NCBI GenBank assembly: GCA_965649765.1
Contig: OZ287751.1
Span: 59,768,001-59,832,000 of the forward strand
Length of the DNA: 64,000 nucleotides
DNA from: Bispira polyomma
Lineage: Eukaryota
Reading direction: 5' to 3'
Shown here: in pieces, positions 14,666 through 64,000 of the stretch
Layout of the letters: each line of letters opens with the position of its first letter
Position numbering within the stretch: the stretch's first letter is position 1
The notes under the pieces: model-generated
Seen by the model: only the letters and a program-made list of their open reading frames with translations
Told to the model about the DNA's origin: nothing
Database searches by the model: none
Position numbers and translations under genes: made by a program

Positions 14666-14671
<6 letters not shown>

Positions 14672-14743: not shown

Positions 14744-14898
14744 CTGTTCTTCAGGAGACAGATCAACACAGCAACAACAATGAAGATAAGGATGAGTGCA
14801 GCTGTAGAGACACCTGTGGCTACAAAGATCTTTTGTGCTGGATTCAGACCTGTGTCTTCTGCGTCAGCATCCCTCACAGTCACATGGAAGCCTAAAAT
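14744..14898 (-). CDS. Copy A exon 24: transmembrane helix
   Basis: IFVATGVSTAALILIFIVVAVLICLL followed by KNR. Confidence 0.85.
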
Positions 14899-16289: not shown

Positions 16290-16490
16290 TCGGGGATATA
16301 TCTTCAGTTGTGGGTTTGAATCCTGGTATTTATGTGGTAAAGTGGACAGTTAACTTATTAAAGACTGGTGGGTTGCAGAGCAGAAATCCATAACAAACTA
16401 TGGTGCTAACATGCTCTGATTTTCTCCACCACTGAAATGCCTGTTGCGATATAAAACAAGACATGTTGAAAGTCGCTGTTAACCTAACTT
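16290..16490 (+). mobile_element. Degenerate tRNA-derived SINE-like fragment (also in copy B at ~55230-55430)
   Basis: B-box-like gggtttgaatcctgg and a 3' tail tttctccacc..gatata..gttgaaagtcgc..ttaac resembling invertebrate SINEs. Confidence 0.35.
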
Positions 16491-22575: not shown

Positions 22576-25057
22576 CTCCAACTATTGATGAAATCATCAA
22601 GTGCAGTGGCATCATCTACAGATGCAACAGCGTCAGAATTTCTGAATTTCAGGTCATTTTGTCTATTGTTGTCATAGGTTCCACATAGTCCCTCTGTCTT
22701 TCCAAAATCTTGTCCCAGTACTCGCACAATGACATTCATCCCCCAGGAGTAGACGTAGACATTGGCATATGCACCAGAAGGAGTACTGATCTGTGGAAAA
22801 AAATGGCTTGGTTTGTTGTAAGTGGGGATATAGGTTAACTAGGGCAAACACTTCAGTAACTATTCTGGATGACCAAGGCTATGTAAATGTGTAGGTTTAT
22901 AGTATGATATCACCCCGATTGAGGTCTCGTCCAACCTTACAATTTACACCCCAGCCAGTTATTCACTCTCAGCTCCCAGAGAGAGCACACTAGCCATGCA
23001 GTCACATTCAGCACAAAGACTAATTTTAAGACCCATTAGTGGTCAGGTACCCACTCAAACCCACGGGTGCAGAGGGACAACTTTGTGTGAAGTACCTTGT
23101 CCAAATGGTAGAATATCCAGGCCAGCAGCGAAGATTAAACCTGGGACCCTCTGATCCAAAGAACAACCAGGTCAAAGAGACCACACTAAACCTGTTGTGT
23201 AATTAATGGTTGACATCCCAATAGGGATATTACCTTAAAGACTTTAAAAACAGGCTGACAACAGAAAGCATATAGTATTTTATCAGCTTAATCACATACT
23301 TAAGGTACATGTCATTTGAATACACTGAGAAACTATTTATAGTATTTAGCAGATTTATTGTAGAGTTTTAATATTATATTACAGTCAAATCAATTTTGTT
23401 TCATAGCTTACAGTGTGTGCACTGCCACCATTTGAGGTAATTTTCATGCCCTGTGTTAGTTGTCCAGTACTTGAGGCAGTTCTGTGGAGTTTCTTCACTG
23501 TTGTTGTGTTACACATATCCATGATGAGTACATCATTACCTTCCCTGACTGCCACAGCACACACACATGCTACAATCACACCTCTGCTGCATTTCTGGGT
23601 GCGTATATGAACCTAGAAACACAACAATGAACTGATAAAATGCCACAGATGACTTAAATGAGAGCATTACATAAATAAGTCATATAGGTAGACATTGTTT
23701 ACATAAAATAGATGCTTTCTGACTAGATTTACAGACGATGCACCTAAAGTAACATTATTACTAACAAACAATGGGTGCATAAAACATTACAAAACTTGAA
23801 GTTCTGTTTTTAATTAATTACAGTAGAGAGCTTCCATCATATTAATGACACACTAGGAGCAATGCATGTTATCAGATGAAAACAAATATCCACACATGTT
23901 TGATTTCACGTCAATGTTTTAATTTGACATAACACAAATGATGTCTTGGACATACATCAGTAAAGATATTATATTCACTGCTCTCTTGCATGTATCACTA
24001 TAATGGTACATTTATGATAACTCTCCAGCATGGATTTTGTGGTTCACCTCAAATTCTCGAACACTGTTACTTTTGACCATCACTAACTGTCCTGTTAGAT
24101 ACTCATTGTAATATCTGCAAATACATACAATACCTTTGCAATCCTAAAAGTTGAAATTTATTTACATATCTGCCACTGTGGTCTACTAGGTAATTGGTAT
24201 CTGTCTTTGACCACAAGGTATATAGAATGGCGGTCCTCTGTCATGGGGTATTGGGTTCAATCTCTAGTAGCAGGCTAAAGAACCAAAATGGGACATTTTA
24301 AAATGGTCATCTTATACATATCCGTGAATGTGGTCCAGTGGGTTACTGGTCTCAATCTAGGACCACCAGGTATATAAAATGGAGGTCTTCTGTCTATCAT
24401 TGGGTATTAGGTCGTATCCCCAGTAGCAGGCTATAGCACCTTGGGGACATTGTTAAATGGTTCTCTTCAAGCCTCTGTCTTCGGTTAGGGAGAATGACAG
24501 TTACTGTTGGTATTTAGCTCTACTTGGTCAATCATGAAAAGGTTAATTACTGAATAAAATATACAGGTAGAAAAATTTTAATACAAGAAATGCAGCAATA
24601 CAATATCAGAAACATGATCCTGCTTTATCTTCCAATATTATCTGGGTGCTGGTTCAAAATCATTCTTAGTTGCAGCACCTGCTGAGTGGAATAGCCTCCC
24701 TACCAGTCTTCGGACTGAGACAAGCATCATGGGCTTCAGAAAAAGACTCAAAACACATCTGTATCAGCTCGCTTTCCCACCCTAGCATGCATCTGATGGT
24801 CACGACTGAATCTCTGATCGTGAACCTTTTTCTGTCTACCGGACTATGCTCTTGCACACTTACTAGGATAGCGCCACAAAGGATACCTGGTCATCGATTG
24901 TGGCACTATAGAAGTAAAAACATTAACATTAACATTATGTATCAGCAACATTTCAAATTTAACATGTTACTTACAGGTTGTCAAAAGTAGTCATTCTTGG
25001 ATCTCCACTTGCTACACAAGAAGCCCCAAGTTCACTTACAGGATCGTATCTGTAGAC
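22576..25057 (-). CDS. Copy A exons 10-13: VWD domain (span includes introns)
   Basis: CVASGDPRMTTFD, ACVCAVAVREG, TEGLCGTYDNN..ND, FINSWR. Confidence 0.85.
22915..23185 (-). mobile_element. tRNA-derived SINE-like element (copy B equivalent ~62265-62560)
   Basis: Minus strand of the B copy reads gtggtctttgtggttagag..ggttcaatc (A and B boxes), followed by a CORE-like ttggacaaggtatttcac. Confidence 0.5.
24641..24935 (+). mobile_element. 5'-truncated CR1/L2-type LINE 3' end, specific to copy A
   Basis: Translates to GSKSFLVAAPAEWNSLPTSLRTETSIMGFRKRLKTHLYQLAFPP*, a typical ORF2 C-terminus; (cattaa)n tail; empty site ccaatattatgtatc in copy B (~63767-63781). Confidence 0.85.
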
Positions 25058-28000
25058 CTAGATTTTAAAATGCAATATTCCATCAACTAGTGAGAGTTTT
25101 AATTTGGAAATTATTAGTGAACGATATAGGAGTATAATTTTACTATTGTAAAACCACAAAATGTTTTGAACTTATCCGGGATATAAGCCAGTATAGTGTC
25201 ATTTTAGAATGTTGCTTTCATGTTTTCCCGTACACTGCTTTCGGAGAACCTTATTTATCTGAACAATATAAAATAGTAGTTTGAGTGTAGTTTCAATGAT
25301 TCAGTGATGAGTCCTTTGCCCAGGGAACAATGTGATCTCATGTGACACTATGGCAAATGACTTGGGGGATGACCACTTATTCTAGTCTGTCTAAATCCTC
25401 TGTCATTGGGTTCCCCTGAGGCTGATAAATGACCATCCCAAAACCACTTAGTTATGTGAATAACAATTACTGGTGATGGTAAGCTGTACTTAGAGACTCC
25501 CAAAGAAAGGTAAATTAGTGTTTTGAATGTAAGATACAGGTAACTAAATGGGCTGAGTACAAAATTGAATACAACTACTATACATGACTTGCACTGAGAT
25601 GTACATACTGTTATGCTGGGTGGATTGTATCCATTCCAGAAGTGTGTGTATGAGTCCCCATCCTCATCTACTTTGTCCAGGTATGGGACAGCCTGAAACT
25701 GGATGAGGTCTATCTTAAGGGGTTTAACTACCGGGCTCCTGGTGGTGATCACTTCTAGCTGGTAGTCCAGGTGATAAGCTTTAGACTCCTCGTCTATCCA
25801 CTCACTCTCATCTATCCTGTACTGGCAGGTGAAGCTCTCTTCTCCAGTCCTACCAGGCTGGTATACAATTAGGTCAGCTGCTCACAAAATGAGACATAGA
25901 GCTCAAGTGTTACCAATGGCCATGATTTTATGAATTTTACTATTATATACATACATATTGAATATTTTAGCCAAACAAGACTTAGCTAATAAGTGGTGTC
26001 TGAGTGAAGTAATTACCTAACATCCAGCATCTAGTGTGTAATCTTTTGCCGTTAGCCCTGCCATTTAGTAAGATTTTAAAATGGCAAAAAATATTTGACA
26101 TTTATTATTGATAGCAAAATGTTCACGTATATCTTTCATGTTCAACAGGGTATAGCACAAAGAAAAATGTATGCTGATTATGTAGTGAGTCTTGAACAAC
26201 GGGTTATGTAATATGCTGAGATATGTAATATAACAGGTCTATAACATTCTAACACAATATATATGGTGCAATAGAATAGTTTGGAGATTGGATGCAGAAT
26301 TATTTACCAGATGAGTCAATGTTGAATTTCTGCACACAGCCCAGAACTGTACCACTGGGTGTGATTACCCGGCAAGCAATAGGTAGTGTAGACCTGAGGT
26401 AGACTTTGGCAGGTAGGTCATCTCCCTCAAACACATTCATAGAATAGCTGGAAGGCTGCAAGCGGGGTGTGAAAAAAAGACTAACAACAGTAATGGTTCT
26501 ATCACATTGACCATGGTCCGTATTCCCCTAAAGAAGCTCAACTCAAATGAAGGCTGTGGAAGTCCATCTATGTAGCAACAACCTATACTTGTCACTATTT
26601 GTTTTAGAAGAACATTCAGCATTCTATTCACTGTATTTAACTGCACTGCAGAGTTGTGGATACCATATATTTAAGCTTGAAATTTTTGGAGAATACAGCC
26701 GCTAAATAAACCTTTACCTTCTGCTGGGATGTGCTTAAGGAATTGGCTGAAGGGACCAGAGACAAGGGACCAGTATGTTAAGAATATCATATTCCATATT
26801 CATTGAAGTGACAGAAAGTTTTACATGCAGATGTACCCCATGATGTGGAAATTTGGTTAGCAATAGAAGTACACGTACACCTACTTAAGCAGAATTTCTA
26901 TTAAACACAGAAACACGGAAAACAAAGAAAAGACCTGTGTTGAGTTCCACTTAAAGGGATGTGGCTGTAATGATATTTGATAAAAATGTCAGTATGTGGT
27001 CCAGTGAATCTCAAATTAGTCAATTATCAAATATATAATCACATTTATATCGCCAAAGAAAGGCTAACTTTGTATGTGAGGCTTAGTCCATCACTGATAT
27101 TTACCAGATGGGATTGAACTGTTGAAAAACCTCTGTGTGTGTGTAATCAGTTGAAGCTTTGCTCTTCACTGACACAGATATTTATTATTATATTGTTCTT
27201 CTCTTTTATGAATTTAATACTAATGGAAAAAGTATTCCACCTCCACCCCCGTCTCCACTCTCAAATCTGTATATATAAATGGTAATTTTCTGTATTACCA
27301 TTTCTGTATGTTTGTTTTGTAAATCATACTTTTTAATATTGGTGGGTTTGTGTCCCTCACCACATTTATGTAAATAAATAATATATATATAAGTCACTTG
27401 TGTGATGTAATAAAATTTTAAAGATCTTGTATGCTTGGTTTAATATATACATTTTTGTCAGTTGAGTAAACTGACCATTTCAATCCACATCCTGTGTTTT
27501 TATTTTAGTTTATAAATATTCCTGAATTTGGGCTGATATAAATATTATTTTGATTATGGGCATAGTTGGGTATAGTTGTATGGGTTTAGTCATTGACAAC
27601 ATTTAGTACATAAATTTTAGTCATTAAAGTACATTAGTGACTTACCTCTATACCTATAAAGTACCCTTCACTCATATATGACATACTCTTATTATGAGAC
27701 GTTCTTGTGAAGTATGAGCGTACAGCACAGCTCAGCTGAAAAGAGTATGAACAATGTCAGGTACACAATGTCTACTAAGTGCAAATAGGCTGGATAAAAT
27801 CACTTTTAATTTGCCATTAAACTACATTAGCTGTTGCTGTCCATACAAACATTTACTAGTGCATGCATTCTTTTAGAAAAAGATATAAGTACTAAAGTAA
27901 ATGATTAGCTTGAATTTGAAATAAATGTTTTAGGCACTATCCATTGTTTTATCGCTTTCTTAATTCCATTAACAACCCACTTACCCACGTCCCCAGATTT

Positions 28001-36498: not shown

Positions 36499-37755
36499 CT
36501 AATGTTCTGGTAGCTGGTGTATGGTGTGTTCAAATCTAAGTCTCTTGCAAATCAAGAGGTTCAAGGTATTTAGGATGTCACTGTCCACTGACTGTGGGTT
36601 TAGTGACAGAGGGTTTACTGACAGTGGTTTATAATAAGCTCCACTAGTCCCACTAGTCGCGCTGCCTCCAGATATCACTTGCTGGCTCTGAAGACCACTG
36701 GTGCTGGGCATCGATGGTAATGTAGGTAGTATTTGTGTTGTAATCACATGTGGCCCCGGCTGTGGCTGTGGGGGAGACTGTGGTGTTGGTTGTGGCGGTT
36801 GTGGCGGTGGCTGTTGATAAATGTAGTGTCCCTGCTGTGGTGGTTGAGGAATGTAAGATGGAGGTTCCATCTGGTAGTGGGGGAAAGCCTGCTGCTTTGG
36901 CAGAAAAGCTGCTGTTGGAGCTGTTGGAGCTGCTGCCCTGTCCTGGAGTGTGGAAAGACTCCCTCTTGAACTGCAGGGAGGAATGTTCTGGCAGTTTCCC
37001 CATCTCCATGGTCAACCAGTACAAAAAGGTTTCTTGTGCTCTTTCAGCTTGGGGTTTCTGTGCCTCCTTTAGGATCAATGTTATTGTCTCTTCCATCCTC
37101 CCAATGGAATCGCGCAACTCAATGCTAAACTGTCGCTCCTGGATAGGGGAAGAGGATCCAAAGGCTGTTGAAGACTTTGGTGAGGCGGCGTTGAGGGACG
37201 ACTCGATTTCGCCATGATCTGTATGGTAGTGGGACAACATACCAGGAGATTTATGAGGGTCAGCCCCCTTAGAAGCTGACAAGATAGGCTTGAAGCCGGC
37301 AAACTTGTTGAGCTGGCATCTGATATGCGACTTCAGGAAGTTGAAGTTGGTGTTCACCCACTGCTGTCGCTCGGACGGCAGCTTGCCCACTCAGCTTGCC
37401 GAAGATAGTGGATCATGCTTATTGTAGAGCCACTCATGGTCCTTCAGGAAGTCCACCACAGCCTCCTCCTGCTCATCGGTTAACAACACAGTTCTCATCT
37501 TCCCCTCCTTCCTCTCCTTTTGCAACTGAAGGCCGCCACCTCACTGTCCAGTGTATCCCACATATGCTGGGTATCCTGGGTATCCTGTATATCAAGAATC
37601 TCCTGGCCCAACTGATGAAAAAGTTCTTGGGTGTCACTGACTTGTGTTTCTAGAATAATTCCCTCATCATCTGTCTATCTCCCTTCAAACTCCCTCTCCT
37701 CTTCCTGTACTGGCTGTATCCTCCTCTTCTTTGCAACTCTTCTTTTTCCTGGCAT
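36499..37755 (-). pseudogene. Harbinger accessory DNA-binding protein remnant (MADF/Myb-SANT-like, BESS-like, Q/P-rich tail)
   Basis: LTDEQEEAVVDFLKDHEWLYNK (~37418-37485), FGKL, QQWVNTNFNFLKSHI, TFLYWLTMEMGKLP..LQFK. Sits next to a Harbinger nuclease. Confidence 0.65.
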
Positions 37756-44668: not shown

Positions 44669-44863
44669 TATATGTAATAAACAGTATTCGCATGTCAGAT
44701 ATTTTTAAACTGGTGGGGAGGGGACAGTTCATCATGTACATTTTAGACAACCGTTTTTACAATATAGACATCATGTACTTAGTTGCCGAATACTGAACAT
44801 AAAATGAGTGGTGTAATTATAGCAGTTCCCTATGTTAGTGGAAAGAAGAAAAGTGCTAAATCC

Positions 44864-45978
44864 TTATATGAGGAAAATGAACAAGAATGAATAAAGTTCT
44901 ATTTGCGTTTTATTTTCTATACATGTTAGTTGGTATGTACAGGTTAAAAGGATATTTAAAATATTATAAAAGGATATTTTAAAATTGAGCCCAAACCCCA
45001 ACTCCAAGGAGGAAGGGACAATGGTGACAAAAGTGGAAGGAACTATAGCAGCAGCTTGGGATGTGGATTGCAAATATGTCCACACTGAGGAACTACGCCA
45101 TAGGCCGTGTGACATAATGTTTTGGAGTGACACATTGTTATTAAAAGCTGCTGTGGCGCCCAATCTGCGAAAGGTATGGAAGCCATGGAATGAAGGATCA
45201 ATTCCAAGGTGCTGAAGAATTTGTCTGAGTGCAGAACGGACATGACAATCCACTATTGGGTGATGTGGTAATGTGGCAGAAGTGAATAGAGGAGCAAAAG
45301 GGGAAGAATGTCTAGCCTTCATAAGTGTGCGCAGAGCCTTGGCCGGACACATGTGTGCCACCGAAATTGTTGGAAGTTGAATAATATGTGATGTACTTCT
45401 GTCTTGGAGGTTTTTGGCCCATTTGATGATAATATGGGCACCTGGGGAACCAAAAATCACATCTTGTTGTAACAAGTGCCTAGTAGGATCAAATTTGGAC
45501 CTAGAGTGAGGTGCAATATTGGACATTCTTAGGAAGCCATAGAATGCGACCAAGAATATAGATCTATACAAAACAGGATCTGGTAATATTTCACATGCTT
45601 GTGATATGAGAGAAATGTGTTTGATGGTAAAAACCCCTTTTGGTGAAGGTCTAAACTGCGAATTATGTGTAAGGCTTCTGATAAACAGTGAAATAGCATT
45701 GTGATGTAATATGTCAGGGAGTATGTTGTATTTCTGAGTCATGAGCTTTAGTGCTGCCAAATAGTTCTTTACTACTTTTGGTGACAGATTGTTCTGTACT
45801 AGATATTCCATAAATGCCAGAATTGAATGAATGGATATTTCTTGAATCTTGACATATTGAAGAAACGCCAGAAATGTTCTAAACTGTGAAGTATAGGCTG
45901 AGATTGTTGAAGGCCTGAGTGCTGACTGTAGTCTTTGAATGGCAGCGTTCCCCAGAGAAGAAGATGCTACTGTGGAAC
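44864..45978 (-). pseudogene. Tyrosine recombinase of element 3 (one frameshift near 45830; the original stop may be lost)
   Basis: SALRPSTISAY N-terminus from the acceptor at 45979; FLRMSN, WAKN, HTFRR, HGLW, VWTY. Confidence 0.92.
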
Positions 45979-45999
45979 CTGAAATTATATATGAGAATC

Positions 46000-48806
46000 T
46001 AAATTATAATATTGAATGGGAACGTGTCTACGTGTGTATTTGTAAAGTGATTGTAATATGTCCTGACTAGGTGGATGGTCAGAATATATACGTGATAAAG
46101 CATTCAGCGTGTACGTTACCCTTACCCCTTATATGTTGCATATTTATAGTTATGTTGTGTGTGGCACTAATTAGCCAGATGTTTCTGATGCAAGCAGCTA
46201 AGAAAAGATCTTTGGTCTTTCCGGTCTGCACGACCAGTACAACCGCCATATTATCACAGTTAATGGTAACTTGGTGGTGCTCCTAGTCCTTACCCCAGAC
46301 CCTTAAGGCTATGACTAGGTTAAGCATTTCTAACTGAGTGATAGCTAATTTCTGGTCGTAGATGTCTAAGACTGGATTAAAGTAAACTTCTTGTTCCCAT
46401 ATAGCACCCATGCCTGTAAGGCATGCATCCAAATGAAATTCGTCATTTGCCCTTATGTTCTGTGGGTTATAATATGTAATGCCATTGTAAGTGGGTAAGA
46501 ACTGTATAAACCAGTCGAGGTCTTTCTTTATGTTATCTGTAACCTTAAAACGTTTTGCATTGGGAGCAGCCCTAAATACTGACAGTAGTCTATTTATGAA
46601 ACACCTTGCAGGCTTCACACATTTGTGAACATAAAGGAGCTTACCTAAGGCTGACTGGAGTCGTGTACGTGAGAGCCAGCTTTTAGTACGTGCTTCAATG
46701 CATTCTGCATATATCTGTTCTATTTTTTCTTCAGTGATACTTATTGTATTTGTCTCAATGTTAATATCTATGCCTAGGTATGTAGCCTATGTAGCAGGTA
46801 GAGATATCTTACTTGAATTCATAGGAAGACCTAGGTCATTCAAAAGAGCGCACAATTTTTGGAAAACTTCATCTGCTTTGTCTCTAGGACAAGCGCATAG
46901 GTAGTCGTCTATATAACAATGTAATGTGTAGCCTAATGTTTTCATGTGGTCAGCTATGACGTCAGAGCAGCGCCCAGCCAAACGCTACCGCACCGTCCAA
47001 GTAATATTTGTCTTTCCACTTAATGCCAAATTTTAATGCGTCCACAGGGTCGATGCGCAAATTTCAAAACGCCCTTGTGACGTCGACCTTGAACAATAGA
47101 GGATCATCTAAATCAGTTATAGCTTTGGTTACGTCATCTATGTTTGGAAATTTTAAAACAAAATCTATATTATCAAAATCTTTCAAGACATGAGAGTTCA
47201 CAGATGCACCTTGTGGGTATGATAAGTTCAGTATGACTCGCCTGTCACAGACGTCCTTATGTCTAGTAAGGAGAGGAGACCAGTGATAGCGTGCACTTGG
47301 TATGTTGGAGACAGGGCCTAACATTGCACCTTTAGTTTTTTCTTTGTGTAAGTATTTCTCAACTGCCTCTGTGTATTGAAGTGCAGAGTGATGATTTGTT
47401 ATATTAGTTTCCTTCAAGATATGTGAATTATCAAGGGATAAAGGAAAACCAAACTTAAGGTACTGGCAGAGGAGTTGGTCTGGGTGATTCTTTGTAATAT
47501 TTTCCCATGCTTTTATATTTAAGCCACAAGTGATGGGGATTCTGGCCTGCCTATAATTGGGGACCCCTGTTTCCCTTATAATATCTGCTAAGTGACACAG
47601 TGGGAATTGAATCAACTGTGACCGAATCCCTGCAGGTCCAGTGAACTGAAAAGTTCTGTTTGAAATTTTTATAAAACCTATGGTTTTATTAGGCTCAGAA
47701 ATATCCTTAATCTGAGTGGTTTCTCGAGAAGAATTAGAAACTAAGTGGGCATCCTTTGACTCGATTGCGACGCATTTCGTGTTGATGGACGAATGCCCCA
47801 ATATATCTATACTCTGGTATTTGCTTGTCTTCCCAGGTAATGTAATTTTATTATTGTTGTTGACAGCACAATCATTACTGCTATCAGTGATATATTTGCT
47901 TGACTTCAAAGGCACCTTGCCTTTACTGGTATTGTAAGCATCATTTTTAATAATATTATCAATAACATTTTGCATGAATTTAGTATAGTCAAGTCCATAA
48001 AGATTGTAACACTTCATGTCTCTACTGTGGTTTTCGTGCGCTAATTTTGCTTGATTAATCTGAGTTCTGTTAAGCCTTTGTGTTTTTATCAACTCGTAGC
48101 TTATGTTTACTCTAGAATCAATGGTGTGTAACACACTAAAAGGTAAACTGGGAATGTCCCCCAAAGGTATATATATATCATTGGTAAAATGATCCAACTT
48201 CCTGACACAGTAGAAACCTGACATGTTTACATCATCTGGAATTTGTAAGTACACCACTGGTTCTTGATAACCCCAGCAGTTAACGTACTGAAAATCCATA
48301 ACTGACATTTTGCAAGCTAAGTTCCATGCAGAATAATACATGGGTACATTATTATAAAGCCCGTTATTTCCCTCTATTTCCTGAGAATTATAACGTCCCC
48401 AATTTCTGTGTGCATTATGAAACTGTGAATCATTACCCTGCTTTGCAAAGTTGTCAGTATGGCAGCAATCTATATCACCTCCCATAAATGGTGAGTTGAT
48501 ATCATCCGTAATATTGTATGCATTACCCAAATGCCCACTATCAGTCTGTTCGTGATTGTCTATTTCAGTTACATGAGAAACGTTGTTATTATTCTCATTA
48601 AATTTACACATGTCTATGTTAACGTCTTTTATGTCTTTAAAATTATGAAATTGATTATTACCAGATTGTTCATCAGTATTTAATTTAACTACATGAGACA
48701 TGTTGTTATTGTCTCCATTCAAATTAATACTTTTAAAATCTACGTCTCTTATGTCTCTGTTACCATTAACTTTACTGACAGCTGTATCTGGTCGATGACC
48801 TCCGTC
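46000..48806 (-). pseudogene. pol (long Asn-rich leader, RT, RNase H) of element 3, several frameshifts
   Basis: FGFPL, SPLLTRHK..RRVILNLSYP, KVDVTRAF, HCYIDDYL, LDACLTGMG, LEMLNLVIAL. Confidence 0.9.
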
Positions 48807-49933
48807 CTAGCTGCTAGGTTTGGCGTTGGCACTGTTGGCTTTCAGGCATTTAAATTCGGAGTGATTACTTTCTTTACTCAATACCTTGAAACAATATGAG
48901 CAGTGATGCCTATACTGGCTATGGTCACCATCATGACTGCATGACCCACTGTTGAAATACTTGCATATAACCTTGTGTGTGTGATCCTGAGAATGCACCT
49001 TCTGACCTTTATGTTGATTCTGAGATGTAGCGTGGTATTCGCGAGTGCCATCTGGGACATGCTGAGGCGGTTAAGCGCCCACTGCGTCTGGTTGGACCAG
49101 TCCAGCCTACCTTCCTCGATGTCCTGCATGTTGTGTCCCCATGCTGCGCAAACTGCTGGCCAAGGGAGAGCGTGCGAATCACATAACGAGTGAATCATCT
49201 GGTTTAACATACCTTTCATAATGGTGAGGTCAGTCGTCTGTACTGCATTAGTTAACTGGCCTGCTGCCCATTGAGATAAAGACAGTTCATCGAATTGGGT
49301 TTTCTTACGTGCTGTGCCCCCGATCCAACCCTCATTGGGCCACTTAAATTGGGGTTCAGCCATGCAAACGTCTGTAGTGTTATATCTTCCCGACTTTAGC
49401 CTAGAGTGCGGCTTACCTTGTGCCAGGTCCTGGTGGTATCGCGCATCATATGCTGCCAATCTGAGGTTCACTGCTGAATTCACATCTGGAAGATTTCGTA
49501 GAACATCCACGCATGGTACAATCCCGTCCCTCTGGTAGTCTTGGCCTACTGCCGTTCCCAAACGCTGAAGTAACGTTGGCTGAACCATCGGGTTAGTGAA
49601 GCCGGCTCCCACCTGTGTGTGCATGTTCTGTCTGTGCAGGTCTACGATGGACTCGTTCAGTGGCATGCCCAGTGATGCGAGTGGGGTAGAATTACCTCTG
49701 GCCTCAACCTGGTCGAGTCGCCGGTGGATTTCGAGATTAGCTGACTCCAAACGCTGGAAAATAGCCATCATGGCATTGTCCGAACTGTTACTGTGGACTT
49801 CAGATAACGGTATCTGCAAATTTTTCACTATTGGATCTGTATGACCTGATACTGCACCTTTCTTTCTGTTGTTAACCGTCTTGCTCTTGGATGGAACACT
49901 AGCCGGTGTTTTAGTGCTTTTGGTACGTCCCAT
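48807..49933 (-). pseudogene. gag-like ORF1 of element 3 (one frameshift near 49020)
   Basis: Basic N-terminus, coiled coil, KSGRY..KWPNE..FDELSLSQW; finger CKYFNSGSC..H..HHCSYC..HSEFKC. Confidence 0.85.
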
Positions 49934-51295
49934 GACGATAGTTATGTGAACAAAATGTATAAAACCTTTTTAAAAACAAACATGAGACTAAAAACAAATA
50001 AAAGACACTTCAACAAGTTCATAAAATAAAAATATACACAAATTTTCTGTACACGTGTTTACCCTTGTCTTGCTGGGTTTAAAACGGGACAGCTGCATGT
50101 GTGGGGTTCACAAGCCAATGCAGGGAGGTTTGTCAAGCTGTGATTGGTTGATACCCTAGTGTGGATAGACAGAGTGTATTAACAAGAATAGTTTTTAGAA
50201 ATGGTTTTTAGGAACTGACACAGCAGCTCCCTAAAGTGTGCTTGCTCGTCAAACTATTGCTCCAGTGTACTGTATCTTTACATATAACATGTTGTTAAAC
50301 AGTTTAGCTTTATTTGTATGTAGTAAATGTATCACAGTCACAACTAGTTGTACTTGTACTGTTATATAAAACATATTGTCACAGTATTGGGTTAGAGCTT
50401 GTATGTAGTTGTACTATAGCTTGGATATGTAGTAAATGCATCATAGTAACAGCTAGTTGTATTTGTACCTTCGTAGATAACATGGTGTTCTGAGGTTGTA
50501 CTATACCTTGTATGTAATGAATACATCATAGTTACAGTTAATTGTATTTGTTTTTTATATTGTTATACTGTTGAGCTATAGCTGTTATGTGGAAATATAT
50601 CATACTTGGGTTTTAAGGCTAGTGCGTAATCTGCGGATATCTAGGCTTTGCACAACAATACATAATGTTGCAAGTATATTTACATATATAGTTATCACTT
50701 ACATAAATGTACCCAAATGTGCATTAGTGTCGCTTAATACAGAATTTATTGTTGAGCCTGTACCATTAGTTTACAAAGATCTTAGAGAATTTAAAGTAAC
50801 ATGTGTTCAAAGTACTGTTAGTTAGGTCAGTTGTGAGTTAGTATAGTAAAAATTAGGTAAAACCAGTCACTGCTCTTTAGACAAGGCTGGGTCTATTTCC
50901 CTTCAAGAATATTCCAATTTAGGTGCCATTTATAGAGAGCTTATATACAATGTAATTGTAAACAATGGTAATAATATATGTTTAACCCAAATCACATAAT
51001 TGACTTCAATATTAATAAAACGTGTACAAATGGACTTTATTAGATGACACAATATACATATACATTGTACCTACATACATACCATGGTTTCACTGCAAAA
51101 CAAATTTTGTAATGTACATAAATACTAGGAAACCACATAATAGAACATTTCATTTTTTCAAGACTTTTAATACAAGATAGAAACATTTCTATGCCTCTAC
51201 GTTAATAAGAAAATATCAGTTTGAATATAATGTATTGTTTTTAATTACATGTTTCTGTTGCATGAATCTGTTCCTGTGCTTGTCTACCTGTCTTA

Positions 51296-51865
51296 TTCCT
51301 GGTCACATCTACACGTTCTAGAGCTACGTTTGTATCACATTGTGTGGATTTTGGAAACGTTTTGAAACGTAGTAGGAAATGAGGATCCCTGGTGTGTTTG
51401 TTCAGTGACGTTGATTAACAGATGGTATTGTTACGGAAACATATCCATTTCGTCATTTGCGTGTAGCATTTCAAACTGTTTGAAACAGTACAGTCACAGC
51501 TCCCGTTTCTCCCCGTTTCTCTGTCCGTCCCCGAATGTTTTCGAAAATAGCATAGACGTATTAGTGAGTAGCTCTACTTAGTAGTAGGTAGCGAGGAAGT
51601 AGCAGAACGAAGCAGAACGCACCAGTAAGTAGAAGTCTGTAGCTGAATATAGTAGTAGCTAGTGATATCTTACCAGTAAAGGGTCCGTTTTTTGCCCCCT
51701 CTTCCTGTGTACAAGTACCAACATTGTCACAAAACATCACAAAACGTCACAATCGACTACCCCTTTATGGATATGACATCACTTTGATACAACACTAATG
51801 CATTTTCAGTGCATATTGCTTAGGTACGTTGGGGGACGTTAGCACGTGTAGGTGTGACCAGGCCA
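51296..51865. mobile_element. Tourist/Harbinger-type MITE, specific to the copy B region
   Basis: TIRs cctggtcacatctacacgttcta (51298-51320) and tagcacgtgtaggtgtgaccagg (51840-51862); flanking tta..tta; single tta at the empty site (~12779). Confidence 0.85.
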
Positions 51866-52405
51866 TTACCTGTGTTTAAATGTCTGCAATGTTGCATGTA
51901 CTTGCATGTGCAATGTTATCCTTATGTAAGCAATGAAAATTAGTCAAAATATTTAAAATATTTATCGAATTTTAGTCAGGGAATAATATGTTGTGTGTAA
52001 TGGAAATAAAATGAAATACTTACAACATTTATATAAGTTTAGTTGACATGTTAGTTAATGTGCTAATATGTTAATCTAGAATACAGAAAGAGTCGAAGCA
52101 AATTCTCTGCCATTTTGTACATACAAATCTTCTTATTGCATCCGGTAATTACCTCTATATAAGAGAGTAAACTTATTTTTAAATATGATACAGAGACATT
52201 CTTTTACATATAAGCCCGTCAGTGGACTGTGGGCTTTGTATATGTACAGTACTTATTTTAATAAAAGTACCCTCCCTAATAAACATAGAACAAATTGCTC
52301 TTTGTTGTAAATTAAAAACATATCTCTACAATAAATAAATGAATAGATTTTAATCATCAACATCTACATAAGATATCTTTCCGTAAAGACCAGGTCTCCC
52401 AATTC

Positions 52406-55400
52406 TCAATAATGGTTGCTGCTGTAGAACTTGCTGTCAATAGGCTGTTGTCCTGACGTCCTACCTATTACATCTCTTCTCAGGCCCAGACTCAGGTTAT
52501 TTTGACTCACACTCTGACCATCACTTAACACCTCAGCATAATCATTTCTAGAAGAGGACCTCAGATGGTGGGGCACAGACCTGGGGGGAACCTTGATCTC
52601 ATACCAGACCTTCAACTGACTGCCATTCCCATGTCTTCTCTGATGCCTGTGTTGGTCTATCCTAGAGGGAGTTGTACTGGTGTGGCCATAAAAAGAAGGG
52701 TTGCTACCTGAAATAATTAAAAGATAACATCTCTCATTATCATAATATCATACAATTGATTTATAATAATAATGTATAGACTCATGAACCTCTACCTTTG
52801 ATTGGGCTACTCTTTGTTTGATAGTGATTGCCACAGAGGATGTCTAAACATAATCTATAGCACTGAAGAATTTGGTATTAACATTTAAGCATATTATCTT
52901 ATAGCATTGTAGCATGTATATGTTTAGTGATGATGTCATGTCTAAGTCATATTAGAACTTAAACTTTGTATGCACAGTTGGTGAACTCCCAAAACGGGGG
53001 AAGACATGTACCAAATATTACAGATACATTAAACAAAACTGTTATTGCTAAGCATCTCAGGCTGTTATTAGATTTACTTTTTTACCATGGTTTTTGTTAC
53101 AGATAAGGTCTAGACTAACCATAAGCATTTCCACCCAATAGCTCACCTCTACTTAGGTAGCCAGTGCTTCGTGTCATCTGGCTAGTGGAGCCAAATCTAT
53201 GGTTGTCATAGGAATGTGTACTGGTGTTGTAGTCAACATCACAAAGCCTCCTTTTCACAGGGTTATTACTCTTTCTGAAGGAAAATAATGAGATTACTTA
53301 ACCACTACTGATATCAAGTACCAATTGAGCAGTACAAAACATCTGATTGTAATCATCGCTGAGTTTTTAAATTTAAAAATTTTGTTGGGTTTTACTATGC
53401 ATTTAACAGCTTGCGTCATATAATGAGGACACGATGGAGGAAGCAATTTCATTTGCACTCTGCAAACCACTAGCCTATGGCAAGTACAAAGTTCCCATCT
53501 GAAGAAACAGATGGATTCGAACCCCCATTGGGGAGAGACCAGTGATTATGAAGTGTAAGTTTCTGACCACCAGGATACAGCAGTGAAACCTTAACATAGA
53601 TAGACATAATCTGATATGGTACTCCTGTATTTAACCATTAACTGTTTATTAATGCTAACAATCTAAGAACTCACCTATTCTTCAGGAGACAGATCAACAC
53701 AGCCACAACACTGAAGATAAGGATGAGTGCAGCGGTGGAGACTCCTGTTGCTACAAAGATCTTTTGTGCTGGATTTAGACCTGTGTCCTCTGTGTCAGCA
53801 TCCCTTACAGACACCTGGAAGCCTAAAATCTAGACAACACAACACATCCGATATAAACAAACTAGGAATATTGTAACTCCTGTTCATCTTTATATATTTA
53901 CATATATTTTTATGCATGATTCACTGATACAAAGAGATAATTTTCAGAAAGGCAGAGGTTACTTTTCCTGTAATACAGTCTCATGTCATTTAACCAGAGT
54001 AAGGAAAAATCATATATGATCCTATCATCTGTATAACAGTTGTATCTCTCAATCAGTCAACATTGTAAATGGATTAAAAACCAAGATACATATTTAATGT
54101 ATTTAATTTTATTTAGGAACTACTTTTAAGTACATAAAGGCTGTAAGCTGCATCTATCACATGTATAAAATACAAACCTCATTTATGGTGTCTTTCTGCT
54201 GTCTGATTGCCTCAACCATAATATCTCTGCTTACATAGATCTGTGTGGCTTCACGTTTAGATCTACTCCTACAAGGAGATGCCAATTCAGTTCGGAGGAC
54301 ACGTCCAATAATTTGTACCCTGAAAAATATTTACTACATAGGGTACCTACTACATAGGGCAGTACATATTTGAACCTAAATGGACAATACAACTTTCAGA
54401 ATCAAACTCTGCAGCCAAAATAAACTACCTAATATACTACCTACTATATGGTCTAAATGGACATTCATGTGAAATACAAAACAAGATTTACACAAAAAAT
54501 GGTAAATAGTAATAGAAGAAACTAGAAACCATCATTAAATTTGACATTTGAAGGTATTACACATAAGTTTAAGGTGTTATATCACTTACATTATTTCATT
54601 TTCTCCATTTTCTTTTGGGAAACCATTTGCAAGGTATACATTGTGTGTTCCAAAAATATTGAAGATTTCTGATGATCCACTACAAACAAAACATGTATTT
54701 ATGACTGATCCTTGATATCACCAAATTACATTTAGCTTACAAACTCTAACACTTCAGACACATAAACTTTTTCGTGGCTCTAAAAACACAACTACATTTG
54801 AGACAAAATGTTGGCAGAACATATTAATTCTGACATTAAATACAAAATGGTAACTGTGCCAAAAGTAGCTAATACAAAATGTTAATATATTTATTCTATA
54901 AGCATAACAAACAATGTCAGGACTCAAAATACAAAATTGTCCTTACTGGGAATACACATGTTAAAGGTCAGTGACTTTGAAACAGTCTAGCTGCCATTAT
55001 TCTGCAGTATACACATGGTAATGTTTGATTAAAGAGACCCATGGAGTATTTGTGTTATCTTATATTTGTCTCACCTGTAGGTTTGAGTAGCAGAAAGCAT
55101 TTGACAGCATTTAGCATTGTTATTCGTGCAGTAGTCATTGACACCTTCAGACACTAACTCTAGAAATCTATCTTCTTCATATAAGAACTGTAAAGAAATA
55201 AGAGTGCTAAATTTAACAATGGGGTCCTCGGTGATATATGTTCATTTGTGGGTTTGAATCCTGGTATTTATGTGGTAAAGTGGAGAGTTAACTTGCTAAA
55301 GACTGGTGGGTTGCAGAGCAGAAATCCATGACCAACTATGGTGCTAACATGCTCTGATTTTCTCTACCAGGGAAATGCCTGTTGCTATATAAAACAAGAC

Positions 55401-58400
55401 ATGTTGAAAGTGGCTGTCAACCTAACTTAAACTAAATTTACTCCAGAAATTACTGTAAATTGTTGCAGTCAGTCTGCTTTTTCTTTCAGTCTTTTTCAGT
55501 CTGTTTTGTATCATGATCATATTTATATATCTGGACATGCCACAGAATTGCAGACTCTGACTTCAATTTTGGCTGTGTATTCTGAATTGTCAGTGTTTCT
55601 GAATAAGGCTGTATATATATGTACTGTGATATTACATAGATAAAACCAGTAGCTATGAAATTATCAACACTAGTCCATATTATTGTGGAGGGATAAAGAC
55701 TTTGCATATAGAATTGTATTTGTATGGTATAATGAAATTAGAGTCCATTGTTACCTCTATCATGGTTGGTCCAGTCACCTCTGTAACTGCTCCATGGTCA
55801 GATTCCTCAGGTTTTTCTGTTGTTAGAGGCATATTGGTTTTCACTATTAATCTAATTTAGGTTTGGTAAATCAAAATTAGTTGATGTACATGTGAAAGTT
55901 CGACATTGTTTTTGCCATTTAAACAGTAAATTGTATTCCTTCATTACTTACAGTTGAGTCCACCGAATGTATATACATGTATTAATTACTCTGTATAAGT
56001 TCCATTGATGAACATAATCATTTGAAGGGCTCTACTTTTAACTGCTAAACCAATCTAAGTATACACTACAAATGTAAAATGAAGATATTATTAATACATA
56101 CAACATGTGTGTTTCACCTAAGAGCCACCATATCCATGTCCCACTACAAGTATTTCTATTCCCATATGAATGCGTAACATATATTTAACATGTTTACAAA
56201 CACATGTATACAACACATATATGATCCTATCTGCCACTGTGGCCTAAAGGCTAACATACTTGCTTAGGAACACAGTTGGGTTAAATCTTATCCTGGGGAT
56301 AGATAAAAAGTGGTTGTCTTAAATTATTAGTTCTTTTTGTCAAAAATTTGGAAATGTTCATCAGCAAGCATCTCCTTCAGTTAAGGCGATGACATTAATT
56401 GTTTCTGGTTGACCGTACTTGGACAGTCAATAAAAGGTTAATGTGCTCTTTGAATAACAGATAAAAGTAGATATATGTGTAGAATATAAATTTGTATCAT
56501 GATCATATTTATATACCTGGACATGCCACAGAATTGCAGACTCTGACTTCAATGTCATTCTTTTCACAAGTATCTGTCAACAGACATGTCCTTTGCCTGC
56601 TCTGACGTCCATAGTCACAGGTTTTAGAGCAGGTGGTATATGCTGACCATTGGCTCCACACACCACTTCTCACATCAACATCACAGAGCTGCCCTGTGTA
56701 GTGAGCTTCACAAAGACACTTATACCCAGCGCCAATCACTTGACATGTGCCATGTTCACATGGAGAGGACAGGCAATACTCTAACATTGTTTCACAGTTT
56801 TTGCCAGTAAAGCCATCTACACAGTTACAAGAATAGTTGTCCATCCCATCAATACAGCTTCCATTCACACAAGGATGGCTGCTACATTCATCGATATTGG
56901 TTTTGCAATTCATGCCGGTGTAGCCTGGAGTGCACTCACAAATGTACTGGTTTATGTTATTGTTACATAATCCGTGATGACAGGGATCACTTAAGCATTC
57001 ATCAATGTCTTGATCACAGTTGACACCATCGAATCCACTGTTACACTCACAACTATATGTATTTATGCCATCAACACAGTTACCATGTAAACACGGGGAA
57101 CTTTGACACTCATCTATATCCTCTTTACATAAAGTACCACTGTATCCTGCATTACAAGAACATGTAAACATGGCAACAGCATCAGTGCAGGAACCATGGA
57201 TGCAAGGATCAGACAGACATTCATCTAGTTCATGTTCACAATGCTGTCCTGTATAGCCATTGTAGCACTGACATTGATAAGATGCAAGGGAGTCCATACA
57301 TTCACCTTTTACACAAGGTGATGAAAAACATTTATCCACCTCAGTTTCACAGTAGCTTCCAGTAAAACCTTCCCAACAATCACATTTATAGTCAGTAATG
57401 CCATCTATACATGTACCTTTCCCACAGACCACTCCATCACAGTCATCAATATTTATCAGACATAGTTCACCTGTAAAACCTTCAGGGCAGGTACACTGGT
57501 ACTTACCACTGCCATCTGATGCTAAAGGTATGCAGATGGCATTACCTGGACATGGACAATCAATCACAGTCAGATTCACCAATACAATTGTATTTAGATT
57601 ACAATCATCTATCAGTATAATTGGTACAGACACATTTTGTGTCAAGCTTCCTTTCCATAGTAGTGTGTTATCCTCTTGAAGTTCCACATATAAACTATCT
57701 GACTGACTCTGTAAAGCAAACCTTAAAGCTCTACCTTCCGGGTCAAAGCTGTGTTCTCCAATCTGGATAATTACCTCTTCATCCATTATCCTCTGGTACA
57801 TAGATGAGATATTGTGCACAGGAGGATAATTGTCTGTAACACATTGATAAAAAGTATTTAGATAGCTGTTAATTGTTTATATAGGTTACATTAGAATGTA
57901 ACTTTGCAAGTAGGATTGAAAACAAAATGTTTTAGAAATCTATAAAGGATCATGTCGATATTGATAAAAGTAACATTTTGCTTATAATTTAAACAATATG
58001 TGTGACACACTACCATTGTTTCCCTTTAAAATAATAATATCCAAAAAATACACATCATTAGTTTTTGTATTTTTTAATAGGTTTTGTAAGATTTAACAAC
58101 TTCCTATTGAGACTTAAACAATGATTTGTATAAAAAGTAGTGTCTAGTATACATGACTTTTAGGCTTTATATTATAACATATCAATAAATACCTAATATT
58201 ATGTCAATTACATATCATCCAAAGTAGGAAATGTAGAATATATTTGTCACTTACATGAAGAAGCAGACCATGTCTCTTTGCCAGTTGTTGGATCACACAG
58301 CAAACAATCAGTGTCAGGATTGAGGTCTTCAGGGTCATAGCAAGTACCATCAATGGAGCACATTGTACTCTGTATTAATATAGATTAGACCCAAGTAAAA

Positions 58401-61400
58401 AAAACGTCCATAAAATGAAGAATAAATTTGTGCTCAGTACAGCATACAAATTCACGATAAACACCTAGTTAATGTCATGGACGTTTTCACTGTAAAGAGT
58501 GATCAGAATATAAACGGCATGAAGCAGTCAGTAGCAACTACTTAAAATAATAAAGATTTGTAAAACTATATAGGTGTTTGAAATATTATCTGGCATTTTG
58601 ATTATAATATTAGTGCTATTTTACTTAGTTGGGACAATAATACAATTTCTGGTAGTATGTCAACCAGTTCACCTTTTTTATCGCAGACCATCGAGAACAG
58701 AACCAAGTAAATTGTTGTAATTAGTTTGAAATTGCTGTATGTAAGTCTTTGCCACAGAGCATGGATATCAGAAGCAGTTTGAATGTACATGAAACTGTTG
58801 GAAAATGTTTGAGACGAATAAGTAGCATAAGGCAACATGGAGTAGCAAAGACTAATATTTCATCAGCCCTGTAGCGTAGTTCAGCCAGGGAACCTCTATC
58901 AGAACAATACCACATGCACATGCACAATTACACATACCAGAACTTGACATTCCTGTACAGCAGAGCACTGAATACAGCTCCCATTAAACACTGTCATTAC
59001 TCCTGGTGTACCAAAGTCCTGTTCATTCTTTGTGACACTGATGTGAAATGTTAATAGATTTAACTCTGAGAAGATCTTAGAAGCAGGCAACACACACAGA
59101 AGTTCATCCTGACCTTGGAAGCTGGCATTTGTGAAAAAAGTGTCGGCTGTCTTTGCAACCTTAAACCACAAAAGCAATTTATTTTATATTGCAAACTTAT
59201 TTGGAAATACTAATAGACACGATCACACAATAAACAACAACCCAGCAATATTAAGTCAATAGGTTTAATGTTATTGTAGACTCGGAATTACACTTCCATT
59301 TTTACACTTAGCATTTTGACTGTACCTACATCAAGTGAAAACACTAATTACAAACATTAACTGTATTCTACCTCAGAGCTTTAGTTCTCTGAATGTGTCT
59401 CTTTATAATCTAAACATATCTATTTCCTCCTGTGTGGGAAGAGCTAACCTCCCCTCCCCCAGAAGTAGGGAGTTAAAGTACCTGTATTCTACATGTGAAG
59501 TTTGCTGTTGCTGGTATGTTTTCCACCCTGAGTAGTACACTACCACAGGGCTGTATGTGTGTATCACACACACCACTGTTAGCCACTGACACCACATTAG
59601 GGATAGATGAAGAGTTTACAGAACAATCCACACCTTCAAAGCCTATAATAGTCAAGTGAAATTCATTATAAATTAGTTAAAAAAATATCAGCTTTTGAGA
59701 TTCATTTTCGTTTTTCTCAAACTTAAAATAATAGAGTATGATACTCTATGAAATATATATATATAATATATAATACTAATAAGTTCCCTCCATATTTGGT
59801 AACATCTGGTTCAACTCCCTGTGCACCAAATGTTAAATCTGTTCCAAGCATGTGGTAGGTTTTCTTATAATGGAGGCATCCATCTATAATTGTTTAACCA
59901 ACCATGCACCACGGAACACAAAGTACTACATTAATTGGTATGATTAGGAAGTTTGTGAAATGATTAAGCAAAGTGTATGATGATGCCACACTTTAGGGGA
60001 CTATTGTGAAACAATGTGCAATGTTTTGATCGGGATGGCTAAAATCATCTGTGTAGGTGTGACCTAGGCATCAGTCAGATACCCCTTTCTGGTAGAAGTA
60101 AAATGATTGTGTCACAAAGAATACCCTTTCTATTTTATAATACCATATTTAGTAGATGCCCTTTATTCTTGTTGATGTTTAACTCTCAATCAGGTTCAAT
60201 TATGTAATATGTGGTGAACTACATACATCATTTCATCTACTTTAAAATATGTACTGAAATACACTTTGTTGTCAAAACTTCTACTAAGATTGGTTTCAAA
60301 CTCAAATGTATATATATATATATATATGTTCTCCTGTTGTTCTATACAAAAAAAAATGCCTCTTCTATTTTGCATTTTATTATCTTAACAATATGTACCT
60401 CTCCTAGGATATTCGAATAATGAAGGTTATATAGCTATACAAATAGTGCATGCACACTACCTTGATGGCAGTAGCAGACAGCGTTGGCACAAGTCCCTTG
60501 CCCACTACACTGGTTAGTACAGATGTCAGCTGTAACTGCCTCCACTAAACCTACCACCACCTGGCTGATGTCTACAGCTGTGGTGTTCCCCTCACTCTCT
60601 GTCACATTAGACTGAAGGATGACCTGTATACAGTTCTCTCTCACCTCTTCTACCTTGTCTGAGGCCCAGTCCAAGTCATCACTGACCTAATGCACAGAGA
60701 AAATAGTTAACGTCTTAGTATTTGAGTTTACAAAGTAACCGCTATTGCCCAGGACCTTGGAATGCCTAAATATTGTAAACTATACTCCAGATGCATCAAG
60801 CTAAATGGAATTAAAGTTAATCCTTTAAACATTCTGTAGAGTTACATTTCTTCTTGAAAGTGTGGTGTGTAGAGAAAATGATAATTTACTGTGTATTGTA
60901 CAAATTATGGCCATAAGCATTGCAATTTTAGGGCAACATGGCTATGTTGAAAAAATAATAAAAATGATTTATACAGTAGGATTTACCTGTATGTCTTCTA
61001 CACACTTTCCTATAACTTTATCCAGCTGTGTAGTGTAGGTAACACAGCCTGCCACTGACTTAGTCAAAGATGTATTACAGTGTACCCAGGCTTGATCTTC
61101 TGTTATACCAGAAGCAGTGGGCCAGTACACATTTATTTCATTGGAGGAGTTAGTGTCGTAGTTAAAGTCGCCAGGATTATACACATAGTCTACATTATCT
61201 GTCTCCTGACCAATAGACAGACTCCGTTTCCTCCTCTCAATGGAGGTAAACACCAGACTGGTGGTGATTGGAAACTGGGCATTTGTGATAATGTTGTACA
61301 CTAGCTGGTCTGTGACACTTCCACAAGGAATTTCTTCCTCAAGTGCTTTCAAGGAGCAGTAGCAGAACACAGATACACCAGAAACACCAGGTGTTAGTGG

Positions 61401-63895
61401 GTCGGGATCCCTCTCAAAGAAACTCTGGCCTACAGGGATCCTGCAGGAAAGATGAATGAAATTAGCATTGTGAAATGCATTGTGTTTTCAACTAATTAAT
61501 TATACTTTTATAATAGATGAGCTATATGTGTCTGCTTATACTTAATCTACATGCTAGAAGAAAATAATACATTCCCCACCCATTTTGTAGGGATCTTGTT
61601 TACTATTAATTTAATGCATTTTTAACATGCTTTATTGATGCTAGGCATCTTCTAAAGTGCAACAGCAGAATCATTGATCCAATCCTGTGATCTATGCCTC
61701 TCTTTAGGTTACTGAAAGAGAGAAGAGAAGCCTGGTGGAAGGGCTTTTAAGGGACTACAACTTGGAATATGGTAACATGAATTTTAAATAAAATTTTATA
61801 ATGAATGAGAAGCCAGTTTAGTCTTTTAAGGAATGGAATGACATCAGTGCGACTGCCCAGGCGAAAAGGAACCTGCATACGTAGTGTAACTTTAGTAGAT
61901 ATGCTTTGTTACCTCCAACTATTGATAAAATCATCAAGTGCTGTGACATCATCTACAGATGCAACAGAGTTAGAATTTCTGAATTTCAGGTCATTTTGTC
62001 TATTGTTGTCATAGGTTCCACATAGTCCCTCTGTCTTTCCAAAGTCTTGTCCCAGTACTCGCACAATGACATTCATCCCCCAGGAGTAGACGTAGACATT
62101 GGCATATGCACCAGAAGGAGTACTGATCTGTGGAAAAAACAATGGCTTGGTTTGTTGTAAGTAGGGATATAGGTTAACTAGATAACAGGGCAAACACTTC
62201 AGTAACTATACTGGATGACCAAAGCTATGTAAATGTAAATGTGTAGGTTTATAGTCTAATATCACCCCACTTGAGGTCTCATCCGACTAAAGAATTATTT
62301 AGACCTACAAGCCTGGAATCTTCCACTTATCAACCAGTTATTCACTCTCTGCTTTCTGAGGGAACATACTAGCCATGCTGCCACATACAGCGCAAAGAGT
62401 AACACCTATTCCTGACCCAGTACCCATTTATACCCCTAGGTGCAAAGGGACAACTTTGTGTGAAATACCTTGTCCAAAGGGTAAAATATTAAGGCCAGAA
62501 GCGAAGATTGAACCTTGGACCCTCTGATCCAAAGTCAAATACTCTAACCACAAAGACCACACTAAACCTGTTGTGTAATTAATGGCTGACATCTCAATAT
62601 GGATATTACCTTAAAATCTTTAGCAAAACAACCTGACAACATAAAGCATATAATATTTTATTAGCTTTATCACATACTTCAAGTACATGTCATTTTAATA
62701 CACTGATAAACTATTTATAGTATTTAGCAGATTTATTGTAGAGTTTTAATATTAAATTACAGTCAAATCAATTTTGTTTCATATCTTACAGTGTGTGCAC
62801 TGCCACCATTAGAGGTAATTTTCATTCCCTGTGTTAGTTGTCCAGTACTTGTGGCAGTTCTGTGGAGTTTCTTCACGGTTGTTGTGTTACACATATCCAT
62901 GATGAGTACATCATTACCTTCCCTGACTGCCACAGCACACACACATGCTACAATCACACCTCTGCTACATTTCTCTGTGCGTATATGGACCTAGAAACAC
63001 AACAATGGACTGATACAATGCCACAGATCACTTAAATGAGGGCATTATATATATAAGTCAGATAGGTAGACATTGTTTACATACAATGGATGTTTTCTAA
63101 CTTAGATTTACAGACTATGCAATCAAAGTAACATTATTACTAACAAACAATGGTCGCATAAAAAATAACTTTTGTAGCTCACCTCAAATTCTCGAACACT
63201 GTTACTTTTGACCATCACTAACTGGCCTGTTAGATACTCATTGTAATATCTGCAAATACACACAATACCTTCACAATCCTAAAAGTTAAACTTGATGTAC
63301 ATATATGTCGCTGTGGTCTACTAGGTAACCATTACCAGTCTTGAACCACAAAGTATATAGAATGCCAGTCCTCTGTCATGGGGTATTGAGTTCAATCTCC
63401 AGTAGTAGGCTAAAGAACCAAAATGGGACATTTTAAAATGGTCATCTTATACATATCTGTGAATGTGGTCCAGTAGGTAACTGGTCCCAGTCTAGGACCA
63501 CCAGGTATATACAATGGAGGTCTTCTGTCTCTCATTGGGTATTAGGTCGTATCCCCAGTAGCAGGCTATAGAACCTTGGGACCAATGTTAAATGGTTATC
63601 CTCAAGCCTCTGTCTTTGGTTAGGAGGAATGACAGTTACTATTGGTATTAAGCTCTACTTGGTCAATCACAAAAAGGTTAATTACTGAATAAAATATACA
63701 GGTAAAAACATTTTAATACAAGAAATACAACAATACAATATCAGAAACATGATCCCATTTTATCTTCCAATATTATGTATCAGCAACATTTCGAATTTAA
63801 CATGTTACTCACAGGTTGTCAAAAGTAGTCATTCTTGGATCTCCACTTGCTACACAAGAAGCCCCAAGTTCACTTGCAGGATCATATCTGTAGAC
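52406..63895 (-). CDS. Copy B: exons 10-26 of the paralogous VWD-EGFx8-TSP1-TM gene; the 5' part lies beyond the window
   Basis: Exons 63813-63895, 63183-63249, 62790-62990, 61913-62127, 60987-61440, 60461-60686, 59482-59642, 58938-59159, 58255-58369, 56517-57833, 55755-55816, 55075-55187, 54590-54679, 54178-54319, 53675-53829, 53147-53274, 52406-52707. Phases are consistent and no lesion was seen. Confidence 0.88.
56517..57833 (-). CDS. Copy B exon 19: 8 EGF-like repeats plus TSP1
   Basis: 436-aa ORF nearly identical to 17515-18825. Confidence 0.95.
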
Positions 63896-64000
63896 CTAGA
63901 TTTTGAAATGCAAATTATGAGTTTTATGGCCACAACGATGAAGGAGTATAATTTTACTATTGTAAAACTACAAAAAAATTTCAAACTTATCCGGGATACA

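Follow-up and report, generated by a model that had tools for sequence, protein, structure and literature searches.

Conserved splice signals point to a Gag–tyrosine recombinase fusion in Ngaro-like retrotransposons of Bispira polyomma

Main finding

Analysis of a 64,000-nt stretch of the Bispira polyomma genome (hereafter the window) and of related loci provides strong comparative evidence, drawn from sequence conservation, for what appears to be an undescribed route of recombinase expression in a known type of mobile element, a Ngaro-like tyrosine-recombinase (YR) retrotransposon. A donor within gag and an acceptor in front of the YR domain would probably be spliced together in the RNA to encode a fusion of the N-terminal part of Gag with YR, hereafter Gag(N)-YR. 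In the proposed scheme, one promoter would serve three proteins: unspliced RNA would be the source of Gag and also of Gag-Pol, the latter through recoding where gag ends (stop readthrough in clade 1, the clade of the window element, and -1 frameshifting in clades 2 and 3); the phase-1 donor located just past the second Gag helix would be joined to an acceptor ca. 21 codons before a conserved YR arginine, resulting in a Gag(N)-YR product of ca. 500 aa. Such a splice would give YR the start codon that it lacks and would drop pol together with the finger and the C-terminal domain of Gag. This output of Gag, Gag-Pol and spliced Gag(N)-YR from one promoter had been put forward in the original prediction and is supported by the conservation of signals and phase, the join itself being deduced from them.

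A Ngaro-like element inserted in a duplicated host gene

The element is 5,429 bp long and its parts are listed in Table 1. Its bounds were set by means of an empty paralogous site, between positions 11,791 and 11,792, inside a duplicated host region. This region (11,680-25,183 and 44,727-63,998) corresponds to two copies, 80-93% alike, of a host gene whose large exons encode EGF repeats, and the element sits in the second copy only. It matches a full-length relative, L062, at 96%, and retains only A1 and one B repeat, its end falling at the exact B1/A2 boundary of L062, so that an A-ORFs-B unit devoid of the A2-B2 tail was either inserted or left behind. The window copy is dead, with a change of frame in gag near 49,040 and stops and frameshifts in pol, and its YR is without the stop codon found in close relatives, the frame continuing to 44,864.

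Table 1. Features of the Ngaro-like element in the window.
Feature	Position	Strand	Remark
Whole element, A1-gag-pol-YR-B	44823..50251	(-)	Without A2/B2 tail and without target-site duplication
A1 split direct repeat, 5' end	50042..50251	(-)	93% match to A2 of L062
Coding part of predicted exon 1 (Gag residues 1-172)	49417..49933	(-)	Contains two conserved helices; donor at the end of the second
Phase-1 splice donor, AAG/GTAAGC	49411..49419	(-)	
Predicted intron, 3,438 nt (Gag C-terminal half and entire pol)	45979..49416	(-)	Deduced from sequence
C-terminal half of Gag, with helical domain and Cys/His finger	48807..49416	(-)	Frame disrupted near 49,040
Gag stop in the context TAG-G, candidate readthrough site	48806..48809	(-)	In frame with pol; 18/18 scored clade-1 loci
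pol (variable N-terminal region, reverse transcriptase, RNase H)	45985..48806	(-)	Broken in the window copy
Phase-1 splice acceptor ending TTTCAG	45979..45995	(-)	
Predicted exon 2, tyrosine recombinase (SAM-like and catalytic domains)	45003..45978	(-)	
B split direct repeat, 3' end	44823..44996	(-)	Match to B1 and B2 of L061 and L062

Two further decayed YR elements occur in the window, one at ca. 1,100-4,900 on the (-) strand that belongs to clade 2 and one at ca. 5,800-10,000 on the (+) strand that belongs to clade 3. Both retain the donor (GT at 4,788 and 5,849, respectively) and the acceptor (AG ending at 2,064 and 8,891, respectively). In a GC-richer stretch at 36,499-37,390, low-complexity open frames 157-245 codons long overlap one another.

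In full-length relatives, self-BLAST revealed direct repeats in the order A1-ORFs-B1-A2-spacer-B2, and both repeat pairs were found in this way in most clade-1 loci and in several clade-3 loci. The gag, RT/RNase H and YR coding regions all share one orientation and the element contains no SGNH hydrolase ORF. Six intact pol frames gave Pfam matches to reverse transcriptase and to RNase H-like domains and end 24-62 residues past the latter; none of the six had a Pfam match to a methyltransferase after the RNase H at E-values of up to 1. Gag itself had no clear match in Pfam, PDB, fold or Atlas searches.

In the available text of PMC3783388, PMC3266345, PMC13465315 and PMC13003380, Ngaro-like elements are defined by A1-ORFs-B1-A2-B2 split direct repeats, gag, RT-RNase H and YR on the same strand, the lack of a methyltransferase and a small overlap between pol and YR. 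The element is Ngaro-like by the structural definitions that could be consulted (PMC3783388, PMC3266345, PMC13465315), an assignment made on structure. Its terminal repeats are direct, not inverted with an internal complementary region, which rules against a DIRS1-like element. It has the Gag zinc finger and the split direct repeats of PAT-like (Pat1) elements; this affiliation was rejected because no methyltransferase domain was found in pol.

Predicted splice sites of the window copy

The original prediction placed a donor GT at 49,416-49,415 and an acceptor AG at 45,980-45,979, and these were confirmed as part of AAG/GTAAGC and TTTCAG/GT, respectively. The gag ATG (49,933) is separated from the donor by 517 nt, both sites are in phase 1 and, as had been claimed, they join in frame, with the frame open through the recombinase. 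The length and content given for the intron are likewise correct, and 5 nt separate the pol stop (TAA) from the acceptor AG. It had also been noted that no ATG precedes the N-terminus of YR: the first Met of the stop-free frame is indeed residue 65 (45,811), which falls inside the SAM-like domain (Pfam 21-91). Only two GT(A/G)AG sites occur on the element strand within 48,800-50,300, the sole one other than the donor being located at 49,308 and altered in relatives L062 and L071. The predicted intron has the sequence attributes of a spliceosomal GT-AG intron, namely a consensus donor and a consensus acceptor in compatible phase and under selection.

Conservation of donor and acceptor across three clades

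Related loci were collected from a genome of 1.035 Gb in 75 contigs; there, 108 of the 14,260 first-look candidates of the YR search were scored and at least 110 matches resulted. Each YR element of the window, three in all, served as the seed for one group; from the match lists, 60 loci 9-9.6 kb in length were hand-picked for spread and open frames, and 10 additional loci (hereafter the outside loci) were taken from a metagenome collection. In a YR tree that comprised, besides these sequences, one Mytilus gene model, the three groups formed well-supported clades, with clades 2 and 3 sharing 32-38% YR identity with the window copy. Loci less than 80% identical were retained as representatives; because these share ancestry, the counts given below are not independent.

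On the acceptor side, the AG was seen by eye in 26 of the 30 nearest YR loci, the other 4 being without that end of the gene. With the AG allowed at codon -21, -20 or -19 relative to the conserved YR arginine, 60 of the 61 loci that could be anchored, out of 70 examined, have one in phase; its position is constant within each clade, and 33/34 representatives have it. All but one of these 60 AGs are YAG and, among the representatives, in-phase YAG elsewhere has a mean frequency of 5% and a maximum of 39% per position. The AG is spanned by 11 different amino-acid pairs and is preceded by TT at -6/-5 in 32/33 cases. Stops in the YR frame account for 72 of 780 codons upstream of the AG and for none of 806 downstream; this one-sided distribution, together with the conservation of the AG, indicates that the YR coding region begins there. 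Among outside loci, the acceptor is kept in L121, L122 and L124-L128. Locus L120 is without the AG.

A conserved motif like GATACTAT(G/A) was also observed in L081-L100, about 25-17 nt before the acceptor and beyond the end of pol. It may represent a branch-point element, and it supplies the ATG found in clade 2 (see below).

The donor is equally constrained. GTAA occurs at this position in 26/26 anchored loci among the 30 near gag loci. Of 64 loci examined, 48 could be anchored, and 47 of these have GGTA at the glycine that follows the second Gag helix. The codon of this glycine is GGT in 26/27 representatives, two close clade-1 copies being counted separately, as compared to 130/441 (29.5%) for other Gag glycines and 6/27 for a conserved control glycine. 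The preceding codon ends in A in 25/27 representatives, across 6 amino acids, and the following one begins with A in 27/27, across 4 amino acids. The donor is kept in the outside loci L121, L123 and L124, in which it was taken as the first glycine after the helix, a choice that is partly circular. In an AlphaFold model of a clade-3 Gag (mean pLDDT 77), residues 44-75 and 133-158 form helices, the donor glycine is residue 160, and the confident helical domain and the finger lie beyond it, which would place the donor at the end of a predicted helix.

Conservation of GT, AG and phase across the family had been proposed as a test of splicing, and all three held in three clades that are ca. 35% alike as well as in outside loci. 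On this comparative sequence evidence, their conservation goes well past the demands of the encoded protein sequence.

Predicted Gag-Pol recoding

The end of gag carries recoding signals that the original prediction did not include. The Gag finger could be scored in 48 of the 60 loci. The clade-1 gag-pol junction consists of an in-frame TAG-G (Table 1), after which pol remains open for 897-920 codons in four loci, and a folding test detected no significant structure after the TAG (median z +0.5). In clades 2 and 3, the slippery heptamer A_AAA_AAC/T occurs in phase at the junction in 14/16 and 13/14 loci, respectively; it is followed by a hairpin with a median z of -3.5 (clade 2) and -3.75 (clade 3) versus base shuffles, and pol is open in the -1 frame for 812-848 codons in three loci. 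Three outside loci have an in-frame TGA and one has the heptamer. From these signals, Gag-Pol looks to be made by recoding, which we infer to be readthrough in clade 1 and -1 frameshifting in clades 2 and 3.

Alternative routes to the recombinase

Both splice sites may be real and have other partners, YR receiving a different first exon or pol using a second acceptor. The outside locus L125, which has the acceptor and no donor at the usual place, would fit such a situation, and the link between donor and acceptor is drawn from sequence, not RNA. We nevertheless regard this possibility as improbable since donor and acceptor phases agree in all three clades, no in-phase acceptor shared by loci with a long open frame was found in the N-terminal region of pol, and the lone alternative GTRAG, as noted above, is not maintained among relatives.

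The published proposal, as quoted in PMC13003380 from Poulter and Butler 2015, is that the Ngaro YR ORF has a slight overlap with RT/RH in the -1 frame, programmed frameshifting being the probable way into it; this would generate Gag-Pol-YR from the end of pol. A hand tally of the loci in which the pol end was found shows YR in the -1 frame relative to pol in 32 of 49, including 14/14 in clade 1, and one called ORF, P0271, corresponds to pol continuing into YR. However, YR is in the +1 frame in 10/49 loci and in the 0 frame in 7/49, counts that indels in decayed copies have possibly blurred, and 14 of the 32 have an overlap of 4 nt or none, into which a heptamer would not fit. Slippery heptamers were found in the pol-YR overlap in only 3/49 loci, versus 27/30 clade-2 and clade-3 loci at the junction of gag and pol. 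Since the clade-1 pol stops 5 nt before the AG, the fixed -1 frame may simply follow from pol ending within the acceptor. Frameshifting, which accounts for neither the AG nor the donor, is thus very unlikely. The original prediction held that an overlapping frameshift into YR would count against splicing: the slight -1 overlap does exist throughout clade 1, but the slippery site that should accompany it is rare.

Finally, YR might be translated from its own ATG, on an internal transcript or by reinitiation past the pol stop. An in-frame Met precedes the YR arginine in 14/34 representatives (10/12 in clade 2 and 3/7 among outside loci), and in one young clade-1 family the pol TGA overlaps an ATG. 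A conserved ATG had also been named as evidence against splicing, and the outcome differs between clades: it is rare in clade 1 (1/7) and absent from clade 3 (0/8), whereas its frequency in clade 2 makes an own start possible there. Even so, the clade-2 ATG alternates with ATA and this clade retains both splice sites, and use of the first Met in the window copy would remove half of the SAM-like domain. As a general route to YR, an own start has in our opinion very little chance of being correct.

Searches for spliced or fused products

In three contig sets whose library type is unrecorded, unique flanks were evenly covered, a DNA-like pattern, and the predicted joint was absent from the 15 of 128 joints shown, a result that speaks neither for nor against splicing. 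No spliced genomic copy was found in 78 loci. One clade-3 locus, L164 (G000:C3:52760412-52763751), has an in-frame internal deletion and was rejected as a clean splice: the left end of the deletion is 2 nt short of the donor, the right end lies in RT and not after an AG, and 2 bases are unmatched. No Gag-YR fusion protein occurred among the listed 120 YR matches, 150 exon-1 matches and 3 long matches, mostly DNA-ORF-like entries; the three long matches are pol-YR. Loci L078, L103 and L115 adjoin long tandem arrays, L078 being flanked on both sides by a unit of ca. 189 bp.

Implications and comparison with known systems

If splicing to Gag(N)-YR is correct, the recombinase proper would be expected to bear ca. 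150-190 Gag residues, annotated YR ORFs being incomplete. The fused Gag helices could also bring the recombinase into the particle; that these shared helices tie YR to Gag particles is speculative, and the original prediction likewise had a Gag N-terminal coiled coil that could recruit YR to the RNP. The scheme also suggests how the recombinase could meet its cDNA, and how the element could retain its intron, by copying of unspliced RNA only. It provides exact, testable junctions for a YR without a start codon, where the printed account is a guess at frameshifting.

In simple retroviruses such as MLV and MMTV, Gag is produced from unspliced RNA, Gag-Pol results from UAG readthrough (MLV) or from frameshifting at A AAA AAC (MMTV), and the 3' gene is reached by one splice. 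The scheme proposed here would share, by analogy, unspliced Gag, Gag-Pol by recoding and a single splice to the 3' gene. It differs in that the 3' gene encodes a recombinase and not env, that the donor lies inside gag, giving a fusion, and that the window element is without protease, integrase and LTRs. The original prediction of a retrovirus-like scheme with YR in the env position is therefore supported as to the scheme, while the env analogy is loose because the donor is inside gag and the product is a fusion. We lean, with reservation, towards the view that a wide animal lineage of Ngaro-like elements independently reached the full simple-retrovirus plan, with readthrough and -1 frameshifting interchangeable for Gag-Pol and with YR fused to Gag helices as the 3' gene. 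On that view, Ngaro elements in general would obtain YR by a single splice instead of by the frameshift proposed in print.

As had been suspected, such a product seems not to have been described for DIRS, Ngaro or PAT elements: no spliced Gag-YR is mentioned in the accessible portions of the literature (PMC7192593, PMC4157794, PMC6681497, PMC9341512, PMC12477816, bioRxiv 10.64898/2026.05.21.726589, PMC3783388, PMC8547959, PMC3266345, PMC13003380, PMC9210276, PMC13465315 and PMC5580714), and subscription papers or Repbase notes may mention one. The window element resembles Ngaro-like elements of the DIRS order, as the available text describes them, in its split direct repeats, same-strand ORFs, lack of a methyltransferase and small pol-YR overlap; it differs in that print gives a probable frameshift for YR, whereas here conserved splice signals would lead to Gag(N)-YR. 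The Xenopus Ngaro families, according to the part of PMC9210276 consulted, have an SGNH hydrolase ORF that the window element lacks. Echinoderm-form Pat1-like elements, which are reported from molluscs and cnidarians in the sections available (PMC4157794), have in common with it the Gag zinc finger and split direct repeats whose internal pair lies close to the 3' end, but PAT elements are placed there in a methyltransferase-bearing group, unlike the present family. In Cafeteria Ngaros, loss of ORF1 is linked to changed insertion sites in the text available (PMC8547959), which fits a link between Gag and YR without showing one. Lastly, plant Ty1/Copia elements, in the portion of PMC5580714 consulted, also separate retrotransposon products by conserved alternative splicing; there the splice yields a Gag-only RNA, whereas the one predicted here would bypass pol and lead to the integration enzyme.
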